Shown: positions 5,376-26,798 of the stretch, piece after piece
Numbering within the stretch: position 1 is the first letter of the stretch
Layout of the letters: each line of letters starts with the position of its first letter
Virus record (IMG/VR): IMGVR_UViG_3300025653_000187
Coordinates: 1 to 29,523 of that record
DNA length: 29,523 bases
Source of the DNA: a virus
Lineage: Duplodnaviria > Caudoviricetes
Reading direction: 5' to 3' (one strand)
Translations under genes and position numbers: made by a program
Notes under the pieces: generated by a model
Seen by the model: the letters and a program-made list of their open reading frames with translations, nothing else
What the model was told of the DNA's origin: nothing
The model's database searches: none

Positions 5376-5734
5376 GAAAACTAATATTTATACTTTTAAT
5401 ACTACCTTTATTAAGTAACGCACAAGATGTAGGTTGGTTATTTGTAAACGAAAATACAATACCTTTAGATAAGCAGATGCACGGTGCTGGTGGAATGTAT
5501 TTAGGTGGTGTATCTTATATTGTAACATACGGACAAACTAAAGACCGTAAAAAGTCTAAAATAGTAGGTATATTAACACCAATAATTGTAGGTACTATAA
5601 AAGAGTTATCAGATAGCACAAAGTCTAATAATAAATTTGATTGGGAAGATTTAGGATATACCGTAGGTGGTGGAATAGTAGCTACTTTTACATTTGATTT
5701 TTTAGTAGGAAGAGCAAAAAGAAATAATGATTAA
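5372..5734 (+). CDS. Signal-peptide-bearing membrane protein, YfiM/DUF2279-like
   Basis: MRKLIFILLILPLLSNA-Q signal peptide. DKQMH, KELSD and FDWEDL motifs separated by Gly-rich hydrophobic helices. Confidence 0.55.
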   Translation: MRKLIFILLILPLLSNAQDVGWLFVNENTIPLDKQMHGAGGMYLGGVSYIVTYGQTKDRKKSKIVGILTPIIVGTIKELSDSTKSNNKFDWEDLGYTVGGGIVATFTFDFLVGRAKRNND

Positions 5735-6260
5735 ACTACTACCGTTCTTATTGATTCAGTTGCATAGTGATTGGAACGCTACTAGCATACTAGAAAATAT
5801 GGATAGAAGCTGGTCAATAGGTAATGGTTGTTATGAAGCTAATTATAAGGTTGTAGATGTAGATGGTAACCTAGAACTAAACGGTAATACTTTAGAGGTT
5901 TTAGATGCCACTATAAAAGTTTACGGTTGTGTAACGAATTATGGCGATTATATAGATGTTTTAGATTCGGAATATATTATATACAAATGCGAAAGTTCAA
6001 ATATTATAGAATACCAGCAATTAAGTATTCCAGAAGTAGAAGTAGAAGAAAAAGTAAGATTGCACCCAAATCCTACCAATGAATTTTTAAATATAGAAAT
6101 AACAAGTTTAGATTGCTATGAGGTTTATAACGTAAGTGGAGAATTTATAAAAAAAGGAGATACCAAAAGAGTAGATGTAAGAGATCTAAAACAAGGTATT
6201 TACTTTATTGTTGTTCACTACGATTATAAAAAACAAGCATTAAAATTTATTAAGAAGTGA
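5727..6260 (+). CDS. Protein with a type IX secretion (Por) type A C-terminal sorting domain
   Basis: C-terminus VRLHPNPTNEFLNI...VYNVSGEFIK...VDVRDLKQGIYFIVV...KFIKK matches the type A CTD pattern (YPNP, YxxxG, LxxGxY, terminal KxxxK). Short hydrophobic N-terminus. Confidence 0.85.
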   Translation: MIKLLPFLLIQLHSDWNATSILENMDRSWSIGNGCYEANYKVVDVDGNLELNGNTLEVLDATIKVYGCVTNYGDYIDVLDSEYIIYKCESSNIIEYQQLSIPEVEVEEKVRLHPNPTNEFLNIEITSLDCYEVYNVSGEFIKKGDTKRVDVRDLKQGIYFIVVHYDYKKQALKFIKK

Positions 6261-12389: not shown

Positions 12390-12692
12390 ATGAACGTATT
12401 ACAACGACAATCCTACCAATTATATTTTGATTGGTTAGGAGAAAAGATATTAGAATGGTACGATAACAAACCCGCTAATAACGATTTAAAGAACTGCGTT
12501 AAAGCTATGAAGCATATAGGCACTCACAACAATCATTTACAGATAGAATGTGATATCAATAAAAAGCTACTAAGCAAAATGCGAATAGAAAAGAATAGAG
12601 CCATACAACGTGCCAGAAAATCAGATGCACAAGTAGAAAAATTAGAATTACAAATAGAACAACTAAAACTAAAAATAAAATTAGGGTTATGA
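12390..12692 (+). CDS. Hypothetical protein with C-terminal coiled coil
   Basis: 100 aa ORF in the operon. Confidence 0.65.
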   Translation: MNVLQRQSYQLYFDWLGEKILEWYDNKPANNDLKNCVKAMKHIGTHNNHLQIECDINKKLLSKMRIEKNRAIQRARKSDAQVEKLELQIEQLKLKIKLGL

Positions 12693-12958
12693 ATATATTA
12701 AAAGAAGCTCAAAAAATTATATTTGATCGAGCAGAAGAAAAAGAAAGACAGTATGGCAATATTGATGATTCAATAGCTAAGGCTGCTTGTGTTGCATCTG
12801 AATTATGTAACAAAGAAATAACTACAGAAGATTTTTATAAATGTATGATAGCTTTAAAAGTATCAAGGATGGCATACAATACAAAAAAAGATACAATGCT
12901 AGATTGTGTAGGATATATAGCCGCATTAGATAACTTTAAAAATAACGGTTATGAGTAG
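12689..12958 (+). CDS. DUF6378-like all-alpha protein, nucleotide-metabolism associated
   Basis: ILKEA..II..R...RQYG...MIALKVSR...DTMLDCVGY pattern. Confidence 0.65.
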   Translation: MNILKEAQKIIFDRAEEKERQYGNIDDSIAKAACVASELCNKEITTEDFYKCMIALKVSRMAYNTKKDTMLDCVGYIAALDNFKNNGYE

Positions 12959-13709
12959 TATATTTGAGAAGCAGTATAAAACTTTATTAAATGAAACGTT
13001 AAAGCAGGGGGAACTTTGCGAAAATCGTACGGGAATTAAGACATATAAACAATTTAATAAATGTTTAAATATAGATTTAAAAGAAGGTTTTCCTGTATTA
13101 ACCGGTAAAAAGTTATTTTTTAAAAAAGCATTAGCAGAGTTTAAGTGGATATATGAAGGGCGTACAGACCTTGAGTTTTTACATAAACACAATATATTTT
13201 GGTGGGATGATTTTGCTACAAATAATAGTTTAGGTAAAGTGTACGGGTATCAAATAAAGCATTTTAACGGCTTATTTGATCAAATAGATTATGTTATAAA
13301 TGAAATTAAAAATAACTCGCGTAGAGCTTTAATAACACTTTGGAATCCTACAGACTTAAAAGATCAAGCGCTCCCCTGCTGCTATACTCAATTTAATTTT
13401 GTGCGGGTTAATGATAAGTTAAATATGACAATGCATTTTAGGAGTTCTGATTTATTTTTGGGGTTACCATACGATATAATAGTGGGTGCTTTATTTTTAA
13501 AAACTATAGCTGATAAGTGTAATTTAATTCCTTCAATTTTAGGTTTAAATTTAGCTGACGCACATATTTATGAATCGCACACGTCTCAAGTTATTGAATA
13601 CAATAAAGCAAATATTTATAAACTTCCAACTTTACAAGGTAAATACAAAAACTATTCTTTAATAGATTATAATCACAATAAGTTTATAAAAGCAGAATTA
13701 ATAAAATAA
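12951..13709 (+). CDS. Thymidylate synthase superfamily enzyme, predicted dCMP-preferring variant
   Basis: NRTG, GFPVLT, AEFKW, YGYQ, SRR, catalytic C144, RSSD and DAHIY are present. GLPFNI is replaced by GLPYDI (D175) and PCH by CCY. Confidence 0.9.
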   Translation: MSSIFEKQYKTLLNETLKQGELCENRTGIKTYKQFNKCLNIDLKEGFPVLTGKKLFFKKALAEFKWIYEGRTDLEFLHKHNIFWWDDFATNNSLGKVYGYQIKHFNGLFDQIDYVINEIKNNSRRALITLWNPTDLKDQALPCCYTQFNFVRVNDKLNMTMHFRSSDLFLGLPYDIIVGALFLKTIADKCNLIPSILGLNLADAHIYESHTSQVIEYNKANIYKLPTLQGKYKNYSLIDYNHNKFIKAELIK

Positions 13710-13710
13710 T

Positions 13711-14469
13711 ATGTATTATACTTACCACATAAAGGGAAAAAAAGTAGGTTGCACAAATAACCCGTTTAAAAGAATAACACAACAGCAAGGGTATTATGAT
13801 TATGAGATACTAGATAAAACAAATTGTATTGACAAGGCGTCTGTCCTAGAATTAGAGTGGCAAAATAAGCTAGGTTATAAAAAAGATATAAGAACATACA
13901 AAGAAACTATTAATAATTTAAAAACAAAAAAAATGATACACGTTACGGATCACACTATTACATTTAAAAAAACATTTAACAAAGAACTAGATAATTTTAT
14001 ACTACCTGTAGTAATAGAATTAAACGATGGTTTTATAATACCTGTAGATGATGAAATAAAAAAATTTATTTTAAAAAATAATTATAAATCTCAAAATAAT
14101 GACGAAAGATATATTTATACAAATAGTCTAAAAAATTATTATGAAGTTTTAGAGGATTCTAAAAAAATTAATGATCAATATATAATTTTTAATAAAATTA
14201 GAAATTGGGCCAAAGAACGAGGTTTATACAAAAAAGGAGATTCTAATACTCAATATATTAAATTAATGGAAGAGGCTGGTGAATTAGCTCAAGCATTATT
14301 AAAAAGAGATGATGCTGAAATATATGATGCTATTGGTGATATGGTTGTAGTATTAACTAACTTAGCTTATATGGAAGGAGTTACTATAGAAAATTGTATT
14401 AATGATGCTTATAATGAAATATCAGATCGTAAAGGTAAAATGATTAACGGAACATTTGTAAAAAATTAA
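13711..14469 (+). CDS. Fusion of N-terminal GIY-YIG-like domain and C-terminal MazG-like NTP pyrophosphohydrolase
   Basis: YYTYH...KVGCT..P.KR...E at the N-terminus. IRNWAKERG...KLMEEAGELAQA...EIYDAIGDMVVVL...AYNEI.DRKG at the C-terminus. Confidence 0.75.
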   Translation: MYYTYHIKGKKVGCTNNPFKRITQQQGYYDYEILDKTNCIDKASVLELEWQNKLGYKKDIRTYKETINNLKTKKMIHVTDHTITFKKTFNKELDNFILPVVIELNDGFIIPVDDEIKKFILKNNYKSQNNDERYIYTNSLKNYYEVLEDSKKINDQYIIFNKIRNWAKERGLYKKGDSNTQYIKLMEEAGELAQALLKRDDAEIYDAIGDMVVVLTNLAYMEGVTIENCINDAYNEISDRKGKMINGTFVKN

Positions 14470-14473
14470 GATT

Positions 14474-14584
14474 ATGAAAAGTAAAGAATATAGTATGAGA
14501 GTAGTAGTTTATACAGTACTAATATTAGCTTGTATAGTTATAGGCTTAAACATATTTAATTTATTAATGCTATGGAATATATAG
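14474..14584 (+). CDS. Small single-pass membrane protein (36 aa)
   Basis: MKSKEYSMRVVVYTVLILACIVIGLNIFNLLMLWNI. Confidence 0.5.
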   Translation: MKSKEYSMRVVVYTVLILACIVIGLNIFNLLMLWNI

Positions 14585-14626: not shown

Positions 14627-15409
14627 ATGATTAAATTACTAGATGGTAATATCTACGATAAAGAGGAACTACTAAAAAAGATGGGTGATGATAACTTCTA
14701 CTACGGAGAACTAAACCAATTAGCTTTAAGTAGTAGTAGCCTTAAACAACTTCTATCAAGTCCTAAAACATATTACTACTCATTAAAGTATGGTAGTCCA
14801 GATTCACAACCTTTACGAGATGGCTGGTTATTCCATACTGCAATACTTGAGCCAGATGTATTTACTGCTCAAAGGTTTATAGATGTTCAATCAAAGAACA
14901 CTAAGAAGTTTAAGGAAGCTAAAGAAGAGTTTGGTAGGGTATTTACAATGAAAGAAAAGAACGATGCAGAACGTTTAGCAGATGCATTCTTGAGGAACGA
15001 ACACGCATTACAATTAATAACAGATTGCGAGTTTGAAGTACCAGCAATAGGCGAGATAGAATATTTAGATAACAAATATCCATTTAGAGGTAAGGCAGAT
15101 GTAATTGCTCACGATAGGATAGTAGATTTAAAAACCACAAGTGGTGGTATAGATAACTTTTATCATAGTTCTCAACGATATGGTTACGATGTGCAATGTT
15201 ATTTGTATTGTAGGTTGTTTAATAAAACCTATGACCAATTTAAGTTTATAGCATTAGATAAGGGAAGTTTAGATATTGGTATATTTGAATGCTCTGAAGA
15301 GTTTTATTACAAAGGAGAAGAAAAGGTAGAAAAGGCATTAGACTTATACGAAAAGTTCTTCGTGTTCGGCGCAGACCTTGATAATTATTGTTTAACTGGA
15401 ATATTATAA
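14627..15409 (+). CDS. RecE/exonuclease VIII-like PD-(D/E)XK nuclease (DUF3799-like)
   Basis: LSSSSLK, G..FHTAILEP, FRGKAD...IVDLKTT, YGYDVQ..LY. Confidence 0.85.
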   Translation: MIKLLDGNIYDKEELLKKMGDDNFYYGELNQLALSSSSLKQLLSSPKTYYYSLKYGSPDSQPLRDGWLFHTAILEPDVFTAQRFIDVQSKNTKKFKEAKEEFGRVFTMKEKNDAERLADAFLRNEHALQLITDCEFEVPAIGEIEYLDNKYPFRGKADVIAHDRIVDLKTTSGGIDNFYHSSQRYGYDVQCYLYCRLFNKTYDQFKFIALDKGSLDIGIFECSEEFYYKGEEKVEKALDLYEKFFVFGADLDNYCLTGIL

Positions 15410-25114: not shown

Positions 25115-25711
25115 ATGAAAATAGTTGAACTTATTTTAGACGAAAATAGCGAACTAGGAATAGAAGCTATAAGCGTAGTTGAAAACCCAGCAATAGAAGA
25201 AGATTTCATCGCATTAAAAAGCCAAGAAATAAAACTTGCAGAGGTAGACAAAGAAAAGAGAATACTAATGGGTGCTTTATTAGTACCTAACAAGCCTATA
25301 TACAGACGAAGTGGAGAAGATGAGTACTACATATACTTTTCAAAAGATACGGTAGAGAAAGCATCGCAAAAGTATTTAATGCAAGGCAACCAGAACAACT
25401 CAACCTTAGAACACCAATACGAATTAAACGGACTTAGCCTGGTTGAAAGTTGGATTGTAGAAGATAAGGTACACGATAAAAGCGTAAAGTATGGAATGGA
25501 TTTACCTATTGGAACGTGGATGGGAAGTGTTAAGGTTAATAACGATAAGGTTTGGAATGAGTTTGTTAAGACTGGCAAGGTTAAAGGTTTCAGTATTGAA
25601 GGTTACTTTGCAGATAAGATGGAAAGACCTAAAGAAAATATTGAAGAAGAACTTGATGAAGATGAAAAACTTATAAAACAAATCATAGATATACTTGAGA
25701 ATGGCTTATAA
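25115..25711 (+). CDS. Prohead maturation serine protease (XkdF-like)
   Basis: TLEH, VESW, GTW and VKGFSIEG motifs. Confidence 0.8.
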   Translation: MKIVELILDENSELGIEAISVVENPAIEEDFIALKSQEIKLAEVDKEKRILMGALLVPNKPIYRRSGEDEYYIYFSKDTVEKASQKYLMQGNQNNSTLEHQYELNGLSLVESWIVEDKVHDKSVKYGMDLPIGTWMGSVKVNNDKVWNEFVKTGKVKGFSIEGYFADKMERPKENIEEELDEDEKLIKQIIDILENGL

Positions 25712-26036
25712 GAGCGTTTTAAAAAGGTTAGATTTAGAATCATATAACGATTATCCACAAGGTGCTAGAAATAATGCTAAGAGAGCCTTAAAATGGGTAG
25801 AAGAGAATGGATGGGGAAGTTGTGGCGAAGCTACTGGTAAGAAAAGAGCAAACCAAATCGCAAACGGAGAAAAGATAAGCAGAGATACGATAGCAAGAAT
25901 GGCATCATTTAAAAGACACCAACAACATAAAGACGTACCTTATAGTGAGGGATGTGGTAAGTTGATGTGGGATTCTTGGGGTGGAAGTGCTGGTATTAAT
26001 TGGGCGATAAGTAAACTTAAAGAAATAGATGGCTAA
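25695..26036 (+). CDS. Basic head-module protein, function unknown
   Basis: YNDYP..A.NNAKRAL...GKKRANQIA...RMASF.RH...WGG.AG..WA. Confidence 0.65.
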   Translation: MRMAYKSVLKRLDLESYNDYPQGARNNAKRALKWVEENGWGSCGEATGKKRANQIANGEKISRDTIARMASFKRHQQHKDVPYSEGCGKLMWDSWGGSAGINWAISKLKEIDG

Positions 26037-26169
26037 AGATAAATTTATAACACCAAGTAGAACAAGTCCTAAATCAAGTAGGAGAGGTTGTTTATGCAAG
26101 GATAAAAACACATACTCTCGTAAATGTTGCGATGGTAGTTTATGGGCTCAAGGAATAGGTAAAATATAA
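26029..26169 (+). CDS. Small Cys-rich protein (46 aa, not in ORF track)
   Basis: ...RRGCLCKDKNTYSRKCCDGSLWAQGIGKI. Fills the gap before the next promoter. Confidence 0.65.
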   Translation: MAKDKFITPSRTSPKSSRRGCLCKDKNTYSRKCCDGSLWAQGIGKI

Positions 26170-26174
26170 AAATG

Positions 26175-26204
26175 CAAATAATTTTTAATAATTGATATAT
26201 AAGT
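26175..26204 (+). promoter_or_regulatory. Late promoter motif copy 4
   Basis: CAAA-N12-ATTGATATA (26191-26199)-N5-ATG. Confidence 0.7.
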
Positions 26205-26798
26205 ATGGAAGCAAAAACTATGTTAAATTCTATAAAGCAAGTTCTAGGAATGGAAGTTAAGCTAGAGCAACAAACTTTAGAGAACGGTACTATTATCGAA
26301 GCAGAAAGTTTCGAGGTAGGACAAGAAGTATTCATCATTTCAGATGATGAGAAAGTAGCAGTACCAGCTGGAGAATACCAGTTAGAAGATGGTAGAATCT
26401 TAGTTGTAAACGAGGGTGGAGAAATAGCAGAAATAGGTGCTAAAGAAGAAGAGGAAGTTGAAGCTAAAGACGAAGAGAAAGACGAAGAGAAACAAGAAAT
26501 GGGATATGCTACTAAAGAGGAACTAGCAGAGGTTAAAGAAATGATTGAGGAAATCAAAGCTATGTTAGAGCCTAAAGAAGAAGAGAAACTATCTGAAGAG
26601 GTAGAACAAGTTGAGGTTGTAGCTGAAGAGGTTGTAGAAGAAGTTGTAGAACAAGTTAAAGAAGAACTATCACAACCAGCAGTAGAGCCATTAACACACA
26701 ATCCAGAAGCTAACGCTAAAAGAAAAGTTGAGTTTAAGTATGCTAAAAATAGAAAAGCATCTGTACTTGATAGAGTTTTAAATAAATTAAATAACTAA
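26205..26798 (+). CDS. Capsid scaffolding protein (putative)
   Basis: Very Glu-rich with a basic C-terminal tail, directly upstream of the capsid gene. Confidence 0.7.
   Translation: MEAKTMLNSIKQVLGMEVKLEQQTLENGTIIEAESFEVGQEVFIISDDEKVAVPAGEYQLEDGRILVVNEGGEIAEIGAKEEEEVEAKDEEKDEEKQEMGYATKEELAEVKEMIEEIKAMLEPKEEEKLSEEVEQVEVVAEEVVEEVVEQVKEELSQPAVEPLTHNPEANAKRKVEFKYAKNRKASVLDRVLNKLNN

Follow-up and report, generated by a model that had tools for sequence, protein, structure and literature searches.

How few genes does a phage need to rewrite the cytosine of its DNA? The question is raised by a three-gene cassette on the plus strand of IMGVR_UViG_3300025653_000187, a complete phage genome of 29,523 nt (both ends fall in the portal gene, which is contiguous base to base in relatives) that we have analyzed over its whole length and refer to as the window. 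The three open reading frames (ORFs) encode a DUF6378 protein (ORF1), a homologue of thymidylate synthase (TS; ORF2) and a protein that joins a GIY-YIG-like domain to a MazG-family pyrophosphohydrolase domain (ORF3). The characterized pre-replicative cytosine modifiers of T4, Xp12 and PaMx74 come with replication or nucleotide-handling genes of their own, and in published in-vivo tests a phage kinase was supplied as well. In the present case, a block of 1.8 kb moves among 30-kb phages that show no kinase and no polymerase, and the gene in its middle can be swapped among forms predicted to be methyl, glucosyl-hydroxymethyl or linked to pyridoxal-phosphate (PLP) enzymes. A working cassette would mean either that the kinases and polymerase of the host are enough or that a new activity is hidden in DUF6378. 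Besides being a test of the smallest gene set for rewriting cytosine in a cell, the locus gives functional access to DUF6378 for the first time, and it adds a candidate modification-sensing nuclease along with many putative new DNA glucosyltransferases.

The reading that we favor, and that the sequences make likely, is that of a mobile insert producing 5-methyl-deoxycytidine monophosphate (5-methyl-dCMP), from which host enzymes build 5-methylcytosine (5mC) into the phage DNA. The MazG domain would convert dCTP to dCMP, the TS homologue would methylate dCMP using methylene-tetrahydrofolate, host kinases would raise 5-methyl-dCMP to 5-methyl-dCTP, and the host polymerase would incorporate the latter into phage DNA, the likely purpose being to block 5mC-sensitive restriction enzymes.

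A Cytosine-Type Active Site in the TS Homologue

ORF2 belongs to the Pfam family Thymidylat_synt (E 2.9e-62). Aligned with Escherichia coli ThyA, it has Asp in place of Asn177 (D175, codon GAT at 13473-13475), Tyr in place of His147 and Cys in place of Pro145, and retains R21, E58, Y94, R126/127, L143, C146, R166, S167, D169, H207 and Y209 (ThyA numbering; Leu143 is L141 and Asp169 is D167 of ORF2 itself, the latter position being invariant in the relatives aligned). Asp177 was found in 52 of 53 IMG/VR loci, the remaining one being truncated, and in all 120 protein matches listed. Since the residue is kept across full-length relatives, it is neither a sequencing error nor a chance event, and the cytosine-type active site noticed in a preliminary description of this DNA is confirmed by the comparison with ThyA.

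Asp177 is reported to move the preference of TS to dCMP, positions 177 and 147 being those that best separate the TS of modified contigs from the TS of unmodified ones (PMC8670742). An acidic residue at 143 has been associated with hydroxymethylation and Asn169 with 5-hydroxylation (PMC13326640). With Leu143 and Asp169, the predicted product of ORF2 is therefore 5-methyl-dCMP, and not a 5-hydroxymethylcytosine (5hmC) nucleotide. Thus, from the 5mC or 5hmC initially proposed only the former stands, Leu143 being kept where a hydroxymethylase has Asp. ORF2 also carries the motif RSSDxFxGLPYD, common to the 5mC synthases of Xp12 and PaMx74. Five of seven Asp177 TS homologues, as well as the Xp12 enzyme, are reported to have made 5-methyldeoxycytidine (5mdC) in E. 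coli together with T4 gp1 (bioRxiv 2024.12.05.627091). Taken together, these residues make dCMP methylase activity of ORF2 highly probable. Other known types of enzyme differ from it at the diagnostic positions. ORF2 has Leu at 143, unlike enzymes of the T4 gp42 type, and its best 60 PDB matches are ThyA-type; it has Asp where the 5-hydroxy-dCMP synthases (RB69/DLP3) have Asn169, and Asp and Tyr where canonical TS has Asn177 and His147.

ORF2 might instead be a regular dUMP thymidylate synthase whose active site has drifted, fed by a MazG domain acting as dUTPase. dUTP is a plausible MazG substrate, ordinary TS are the best PDB and INPHARED matches of ORF2, and DUF6378 is fused to dUTPase or uracil-DNA glycosylase (UDG) in three of 60 long homologues. 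This explanation is hard to reconcile with an invariant Asp177 reported to switch the preference to dCMP (PMC8670742, PMC13326640), with the replacement of the TS neighbor by a gp42-like hydroxymethylase in other phages and with the lack of any TS in most relatives, and we regard it as very improbable.

The Cassette as a Mobile Insert

The coordinates, Pfam families and fold bear out the three tightly coupled genes of the preliminary description (Table 1); ORF1 and ORF2 overlap by 8 nt, and 1 nt separates ORF2 from ORF3. A relative without the cassette, L055, is 95% identical to the window in the terminase, 91% in the helicase and 87% in the exonuclease. Its alignment with the window delimits an insert of 1,785 bp, extending from the start codon of DUF6378 to just short of the next start codon. 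The GC content is 26.5% in the cassette, compared to 32.6% in the remaining genome. Two further carriers, L004 and L006, share DUF6378 (98%) and TS (93-94%) with the window, while their terminases are only 35-40% identical. This near identity of cassette genes over such distant backgrounds indicates that the cassette has been transferred recently between distant phages. The ORF3 fusion gene is only 62-71% identical in the same two loci, indicating that it was exchanged separately from TS.

Table 1. Features of the cassette and its borders in the window (positions are those of the 29,523-nt stretch).
Feature	Position	Strand	Remarks
Left flanking gene, 100 aa, no assigned function	12390..12692	+	In L055 it reads directly into a small ORF
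Left copy of a 17-nt imperfect direct repeat (15/17 alike), across the start codon at the insertion point	12677..12693	+	
ORF1, DUF6378 protein, 89 aa, five helices	12689..12958	+	Pfam E 1.4e-15, passing the cut-off; model pLDDT 85.7
ORF2, TS homologue, predicted dCMP C5-methylase, 252 aa	12951..13709	+	Active-site residues; motif common to Xp12/PaMx74 TS
ORF3, whole fusion protein, 252 aa	13711..14469	+	
ORF3 aa 1-74, T5orf172/MUG113-type GIY-YIG-like domain	13711..13932	+	Invariant residues, family matches, model topology
ORF3 aa 75-155, middle domain, no family match	13933..14175	+	Begins at an internal Met after an A-rich run
ORF3 C-terminal, MazG-family all-alpha NTP pyrophosphohydrolase domain	14176..14469	+	Profiles, fold, metal site
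Right copy of the repeat, across the stop codon of ORF3 (MazG) and the beginning of the following ORF	14462..14478	+	
Right flanking hydrophobic ORF, 36 aa	14474..14584	+	Followed by a PD-(D/E)XK exonuclease, 14627-15409

Among the loci anchored on the terminase, 65 were classed as without cassette, 12 as methylase and 13 as hydroxymethylase carriers (90 of 240 loci could be classed, without de-duplication, and two of the three queries came from carriers). A TS gene of any kind was found in none of the seven terminase relatives at least 90% complete, and in three of the 30 records overall. The phage lineage does not require a TS, given its absence from all near-complete relatives. The region of the slot frequently carries C5 or N6/N4 methyltransferases, ParB or TET-associated glycosyltransferase (TAGT) genes in the relatives. 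ParB-like and TAGT genes were seen in the same variable region in L021 (7091-8426), L073, L104 and L451, in L021 alongside a methylase cassette.

A MazG Domain Fused to a GIY-YIG-Like Domain

The C-terminal part of ORF3 matches the PRA-PH (E 1.3e-5) and MazG (E 3.3e-5) profiles, both passing the cut-off, as well as phrog_715 (E 8e-33), and structurally it matches the MazG/HisE fold (Z 10.6, root-mean-square deviation 2.6, 86 residues aligned). The metal site is intact (E187/E188-x-x-E191 ... E203-x-x-D206); in the family alignment E187, E188, E191, D206 and D210 are invariant and E203 nearly so. Such a domain adjoins 86 of the 87 distinct methylase-type genes with enough flanking sequence, fused in 52 cases and standalone in 34. 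The proposed co-occurrence of the three genes with an Asp-type TS was found, the genes moving as a unit. It seems fairly likely that the domain acts on dCTP or dCDP; its structural neighbors have mixed substrates. A cyanophage MazG is reported to prefer dGTP and dCTP, and this was interpreted as recycling for an AT-rich genome (PMC6850273).

The N-terminal domain of ORF3 gives a weak profile match (MUG113, E 5.8e-4, 20.8 bits vs. a cut-off of 22.3). However, T5orf172 was matched by 27 of the 29 aligned family members at E<=1, and Y2, Y5, K11, G13, R21 and E47 are invariant in the 29 rows of the alignment. Compared with the well-known GIY-YIG motif pattern, the Tyr of the second motif is replaced by Lys. 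The order of elements in the model is beta-beta-alpha-beta-alpha, and the Atlas feature score between this domain and T5orf172-bearing clusters is 0.96. On these grounds the domain is placed in the T5orf172/MUG113 branch of GIY-YIG. No solved structure matched its profile, and in fold searches with the ORF3 model the match lists were filled by the MazG domain. In addition to the two domains of the fusion first described, ORF3 has a third one that separates them (residues 75-155, about 80 aa) and that had been missed.

The GIY-YIG-like domain is optional, as shown by the unfused MazG in 34 of the 86 methylase loci with a neighboring MazG. When present, its company is strict. Among 73 distinct fusion proteins (from loci fetched via the fusion alignment), 70 had a readable TS neighbor and three lay at contig ends, and all 70 neighbors had Asp177 (39 with Leu143, 30 with Asp143 and one with residue 143 unread). 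This strict link between fusion and Asp177 is the best support for an activity like that of T4 endonuclease II, in which the domain would cleave DNA unless it is modified and would provide the pathway with dCMP released from the host DNA, a role that we put forward only tentatively. The fused MazG domains group on one side of a branch (support 81/85), so the fusions may be of single origin.

A homing-type role for the GIY-YIG and middle domains seems about equally tentative. Homing endonucleases usually combine a nuclease with a second domain, and such an endonuclease would spread the cassette, or itself, into cassette-free phages with no sensing of modification. The optional presence of the domain would fit, as would the movement of the cassette between distant phages (L004, L006), the separate exchange of the fusion gene and the possible release of MazG from a conserved internal Met. 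On the other hand, the position of the fused domains on one side of the branch is not the patchy spread expected from homing, and the 70 readable neighbors are all Asp177 enzymes although they are of two very different types and from different phage groups. A nuclease cutting only unmodified DNA could also do both jobs. The internal Met lies in the linker behind the GIY-YIG domain and was found in all 105 distinct fused proteins; in the window an A-rich run (13915-13935) precedes it (Met75). Because of this conservation, and since proteins with middle domain and MazG lacking the GIY part exist (L149, L150), a second start at this Met, yielding a nuclease-free MazG form, is possible.

DUF6378 as a Probable Partner of the Pathway

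In loci fetched via the DUF6378 alignment, 63 of 66 distinct proteins had a TS site within 4.5 kb, which was of the Asp177 type in 62 and Asn177 in one. When 60 long homologues (of 150 listed) were scanned, seven turned out to be fusions, with partners that include MazG of the cassette's own family, PRA-PH, dUTPase (twice), UDG, an Asp177 TS or a P-loop domain. From this company it is reasonably likely that DUF6378 serves the same nucleotide pathway as a pyrimidine-nucleotide partner, its step being most likely that of a second hydrolase or of a nucleotide-binding partner. It is not indispensable, being clearly absent from 15 of the 87 methylase loci. The family is large (1,661 representatives at 50% identity), and distant members are found in 112 actinobacteriophage records.

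Y22, G23, K57, R60, D68, D72 and Y76 are conserved at 98-100% in 151 rows, a set that offers only a DxxxD pair plus Lys/Arg, compared to the two acidic motifs of the MazG superfamily. Ten of the 50 VIA rows for the model belong to the MazG/HisE family, which accounts for the rows that cover the whole chain, with Z of 5.0-6.5, below the trusted level. A Foldseek search gave nothing at E<=0.001, the Atlas returned DUF6378 clusters only, and a profile comparison of DUF6378 with the MazG domain gave no match. The PHROG label "phosphofructokinase" attached to DUF6378 families was unsupported by any data in this analysis, and a likeness to DUF1599/Nmad1 was dropped, with no Pfam match in 82 members.

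The pyrophosphatases of Xp12 and PaMx74 (L566:46207-46980; L567:41389-42126) carry at the C-terminus an unannotated helical domain (about 90 aa) whose Lys-Arg and Asp-x3-Asp-x3-Tyr pattern is reminiscent of DUF6378. Its identification as DUF6378 was rejected, as the profile score of 13.6 against a shuffled maximum of 14.8 is not significant. One protein, P0373, does have this layout, with PRA-PH followed by DUF6378. A small helical family without Pfam match, c19 (R...KYG...HLQEELMDA..Y; L219:1900-2121, L244:6767-7069), often replaces DUF6378 beside the cassette and has a weak likeness to it (score 23 vs. a shuffled maximum of 16.6). It was rejected as a cassette part because it occurs in cassette-free phages too.

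Sister Cassettes with an Exchangeable Middle

In L081 (4966-8059) and its kin the order is DUF6378, a homologue of the T4 beta-glucosyltransferase (E 1.4e-9), a gp42-like enzyme (E 2e-17) with Asp143 and Asp177, an 80-aa ORF and the same fusion protein. These sister cassettes, in 30-kb phages with no recognizable polymerase or kinase, appear to be a miniature T4-type system for glucosylated hydroxymethylcytosine. Further loci of this kind are L093, L096, L097, L099 and L278-L334. We examined 51 distinct genes located 5' of the hydroxymethylase; 20 were beta-like (with a profile built from beta-like proteins) and 10 DNA alpha-glucosyltransferases passing the Pfam cut-off, the rest being five PLP enzymes, one UDP-galactopyranose mutase and 15 unassigned genes. 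The glucosyltransferases of T4 act on DNA. The presence of their homologues makes it most likely, by analogy, that the modified nucleotide of the sister phages reaches DNA.

Among the 48 ORFs of the window scanned with family profiles there was no recognizable DNA polymerase, nucleotide kinase or deaminase, in agreement with the preliminary description as regards the first two. P-loops were found in the helicase and terminase only, and the dCMP deaminase family PF00383 had no match in the window, in a search whose control was positive in 13 of 14 genomes. Among 16 carriers that are nearly complete (about 30 kb in 12 cases and 63-69 kb in four), no ORF had a kinase-type P-loop, and the kinase, deaminase and polymerase profiles derived from the phage AP013540 had no match. 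A Pfam scan of 150 of their proteins (148 of 173 cluster representatives and two others; the 25 omitted were mostly long structural or opposite-strand frames) found no kinase, deaminase or polymerase family, although a divergent kinase or polymerase could escape it. A DNMK family search was negative in 47 records, but since the kinase-annotated gene of AP013540, the control record, went undetected as well, this result carries little weight.

A bolder version would make DUF6378 and GIY-YIG-MazG a universal chassis, with which tiny phages devoid of polymerase and kinase make fully modified-cytosine DNA with host enzymes. The fusion would be an endonuclease II/dCTPase chimera, directed against DNA that is unmodified and supplying dCMP to any modifier that occupies the middle, and the missing activation or pool-clearing step would fall to DUF6378, by an undescribed chemistry. 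We consider this unlikely.

Other variants of the middle were also seen. Three genes of about 300 aa lie between DUF6378 and the hydroxymethylase in L207 (6254-9876), L190 (4423-8180), L336-L343, L223 and L266, one with a glucosyltransferase-like start, one unassigned and one a PLP-dependent (PALP) enzyme, making this group a candidate for a new hypermodification of hydroxymethylcytosine. L186 (3568-7735) and L200 (5077-8324) have a row of PLP enzyme, DUF6378, dUTPase-like gene, dCMP deaminase and Asp177 hydroxymethylase, a route that could end in 5hmC or, via deamination, in 5-hydroxymethyluracil. The UDP-galactopyranose mutase (E 7e-52) lies immediately 5' of the hydroxymethylase in L315 (6758-7762), which suggests a galactofuranose modification. 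The 15 genes without Pfam match (344-440 aa, e.g., L300:2873-4192, L311:2603-3634, L329:3999-5087) are possibly new families of DNA glycosyltransferases. Phages of 60-69 kb (L227-L277; G035, G040, G041, G044) have an Asp177 TS and the same fusion together with primase-helicase, ribonucleotide reductase and ligase; no DNA polymerase was recognized in the four of these larger records that were scanned.

Restriction-Site Avoidance and the Fate of the Predicted Methylated Nucleotide

If modified cytosine protects the DNA, carriers might be expected to avoid restriction sites less. The median observed/expected ratio of CCGG, CGCG, GCGC and GGCC was 0.57 in methylase carriers (n=23), 0.73 in the other carriers (n=35) and 0.17 in non-carriers (n=19), which all come from one clade. 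The weaker avoidance in carriers was significant for the methylase (p 1.6e-5) and the other (p 8e-7) group. Within terminase clades, the values were 0.73 in four hydroxymethylase carriers vs. 0.17 in 17 genomes without cassette in clade 1 (p 0.003), 0.58 (6 carriers) vs. 0.29 (16 without) in clade 2 (p 0.04) and 0.81 (3 carriers) vs. 0.80 (13 without) in clade 3 (p 0.70), where the slot lies upstream of the helicase and is possibly out of view in some loci. CpG depletion did not differ between the groups. In each of the three terminase clades the carriers have the lower GC content (p 0.066, 0.015, 0.031).

We consider that 5mC probably does reach the phage DNA. 5-Methyl-dCTP is reported to be a good substrate for nine polymerases (PMC9594043), and engineered E. 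coli with T4 genes reached 63% 5hmC according to a review.

Several results weigh against the proposed production and incorporation of 5mC. At the level of the enzyme, two of the seven Asp177 homologues gave no 5mdC in E. coli (bioRxiv 2024.12.05.627091), ORF2 is only about 27% identical to the Xp12 enzyme and on another branch, and the Leu143 rule is inexact (Xp12 has Asn at this position), so that it serves as a guide only. The MazG family is present in 1,205 INPHARED records and common in phages without known modification (carriers include Streptococcus, Staphylococcus and Paenibacillus phages); because of this wide distribution, we can only infer its dCTP specificity. No kinase was found in the window, which leaves the step from 5-methyl-dCMP to the triphosphate unexplained, and a phage kinase was used both in the published 5mdC test (bioRxiv 2024.12.05.627091) and in the engineered 5hmC E. 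coli. As for the footprint, the window itself avoids the GC-palindromes fully, like non-carriers (18 seen vs. 97.5 expected, 0.18). The relaxation within clades holds in two of three only, with three to six carriers each and related genomes that are not independent, and over all C-containing palindromes in whole genomes seven methylase carriers were not relaxed. The unrelaxed avoidance of the window fits a recent gain or partial protection and gives no support for long-standing full substitution; the partial substitution initially proposed is a guess.

Some of these results would also fit a different fate of the product, in which 5-methyl-dCMP is made but sent to dTMP/dTTP by a host deaminase, leaving little 5mC in DNA and serving as thymidine supply, drawn from surplus cytosine nucleotides, for an AT-rich genome or as a bypass of dCTP-depleting defenses. 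The missing kinase, the lower GC of carriers in the three clades and the full site avoidance of the window agree with it, and so do the deamination of 5mdCTP to dTTP proposed for Xp12-like phages (bioRxiv 2024.12.05.627091) and the nucleotide preference of the cyanophage MazG with its reading as recycling (PMC6850273). However, kinase-less sister phages hold hydroxymethylase and DNA glucosyltransferases in the same frame, which is sensible only if the base reaches DNA. Moreover, there is no deaminase in the window or in the 16 carriers, and an ordinary Asn177 TS would suffice for thymidine supply, yet all 70 readable neighbors of the fusion have Asp177. The thymidine route thus appears improbable compared with the incorporation of 5mC.

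In the window, CATG is absent (0 seen vs. 122 expected, counting both strands) and GATC reaches 0.14 of its expected number, a depletion suggestive of strong pressure from restriction at sites where 5mC may give no protection.

Comparison with Known Systems

The nearest characterized model is that of Xp12 and PaMx74, in which a TS with Asp177 and the RSSDxFxGLPYD motif also lies beside an all-alpha pyrophosphohydrolase (theirs PRA-PH, E about 1e-15). However, these phages of 59-64 kb have an adjacent dCMP deaminase and a gene annotated as dihydrofolate reductase, both missing in the 29.5-kb window, and for PaMx74 the stretch seen also includes a DNA polymerase of the phage's own, whereas the window has none. 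The TS enzymes are about 27% identical and on separate branches. The pyrophosphatase of the window belongs to a different MazG family, and is fused to the GIY-YIG-like domain.

The roles of gp42, gp56, gp1, the glucosyltransferases and endonuclease II in T4 are well established, and the window shares with them the logic of dCMP modification plus pyrophosphatase. Its TS is ThyA-like with Leu143 and not gp42-like, its MazG is not gp56, and there is no gp1 kinase or polymerase. The putative nuclease domain, whose second motif has Lys, resembles T5orf172/MUG113 and does not belong to the endonuclease II branch. It is the sister cassettes, and not the window, that have homologues of gp42, beta-glucosyltransferase (E 1.4e-9) and alpha-glucosyltransferase. 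The initial idea that the cassette packs three T4 functions gains from these T4-like genes within the same flanks, but not from Xp12/PaMx74 being the nearest model or from the optional GIY-YIG domain, and is best kept as a hypothesis for one sub-lineage.

The closest TS in INPHARED (55%) is that of AP013540 (uncultured phage MedDCM-OCT-S28-C10 cluster), which has the PCCY and GLPYD motifs and falls in the same starred clade. It lies amid PRA-PH, a kinase-annotated gene, dCMP deaminase and DNA polymerase A, and no DUF6378 or GIY domain was found there. In the MetaGPA contigs, Asp177 and a changed 147 mark the modified-cytosine TS, which co-occurs with PRA-PH; the emphasis is on deaminase, carbamoyltransferase, ligase and polymerase partners, and the main texts do not name MazG (PMC8670742; bioRxiv 2024.12.05.627091). 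The pairing of an Asp177 TS with an all-alpha pyrophosphatase had been published already in these two reports. What is new here is the kinase-less minimal form, the exchangeable chemistry and the link to DUF6378. A literature search, outside which most subscription papers fell, gave no description of a DUF6378...MazG frame without kinase, of the exchange of its middle or of the fusion with GIY-YIG, and the MetaGPA supplements may include family members.

The Phage and Its Setting

The window encodes terminase, portal, protease, tail genes, a DnaB-like helicase, a single-stranded DNA-binding protein, a sigma-like factor, NinG and an exonuclease. The host is probably a member of the Bacteroidota, as the terminase is closest to those of Flavobacterium phages (37%) and a Por secretion tail is present in one gene. 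A gene at 5727-6260, between tail and lysis genes, carries a C-terminal sorting domain of Bacteroidota type IX secretion (E 1e-9). No copy of the cassette, prophage or cellular, was found in GTDB genomes beyond one 26% match. The window sequence was found in freshwater metagenome runs, and RNA runs contain only 5-10% of its words. The head protease region (25115-26798) consists of three ORFs (198, 113 and 197 aa), where relatives have a single ORF of about 299 aa in the same PHROG, indicating a split or an insertion.

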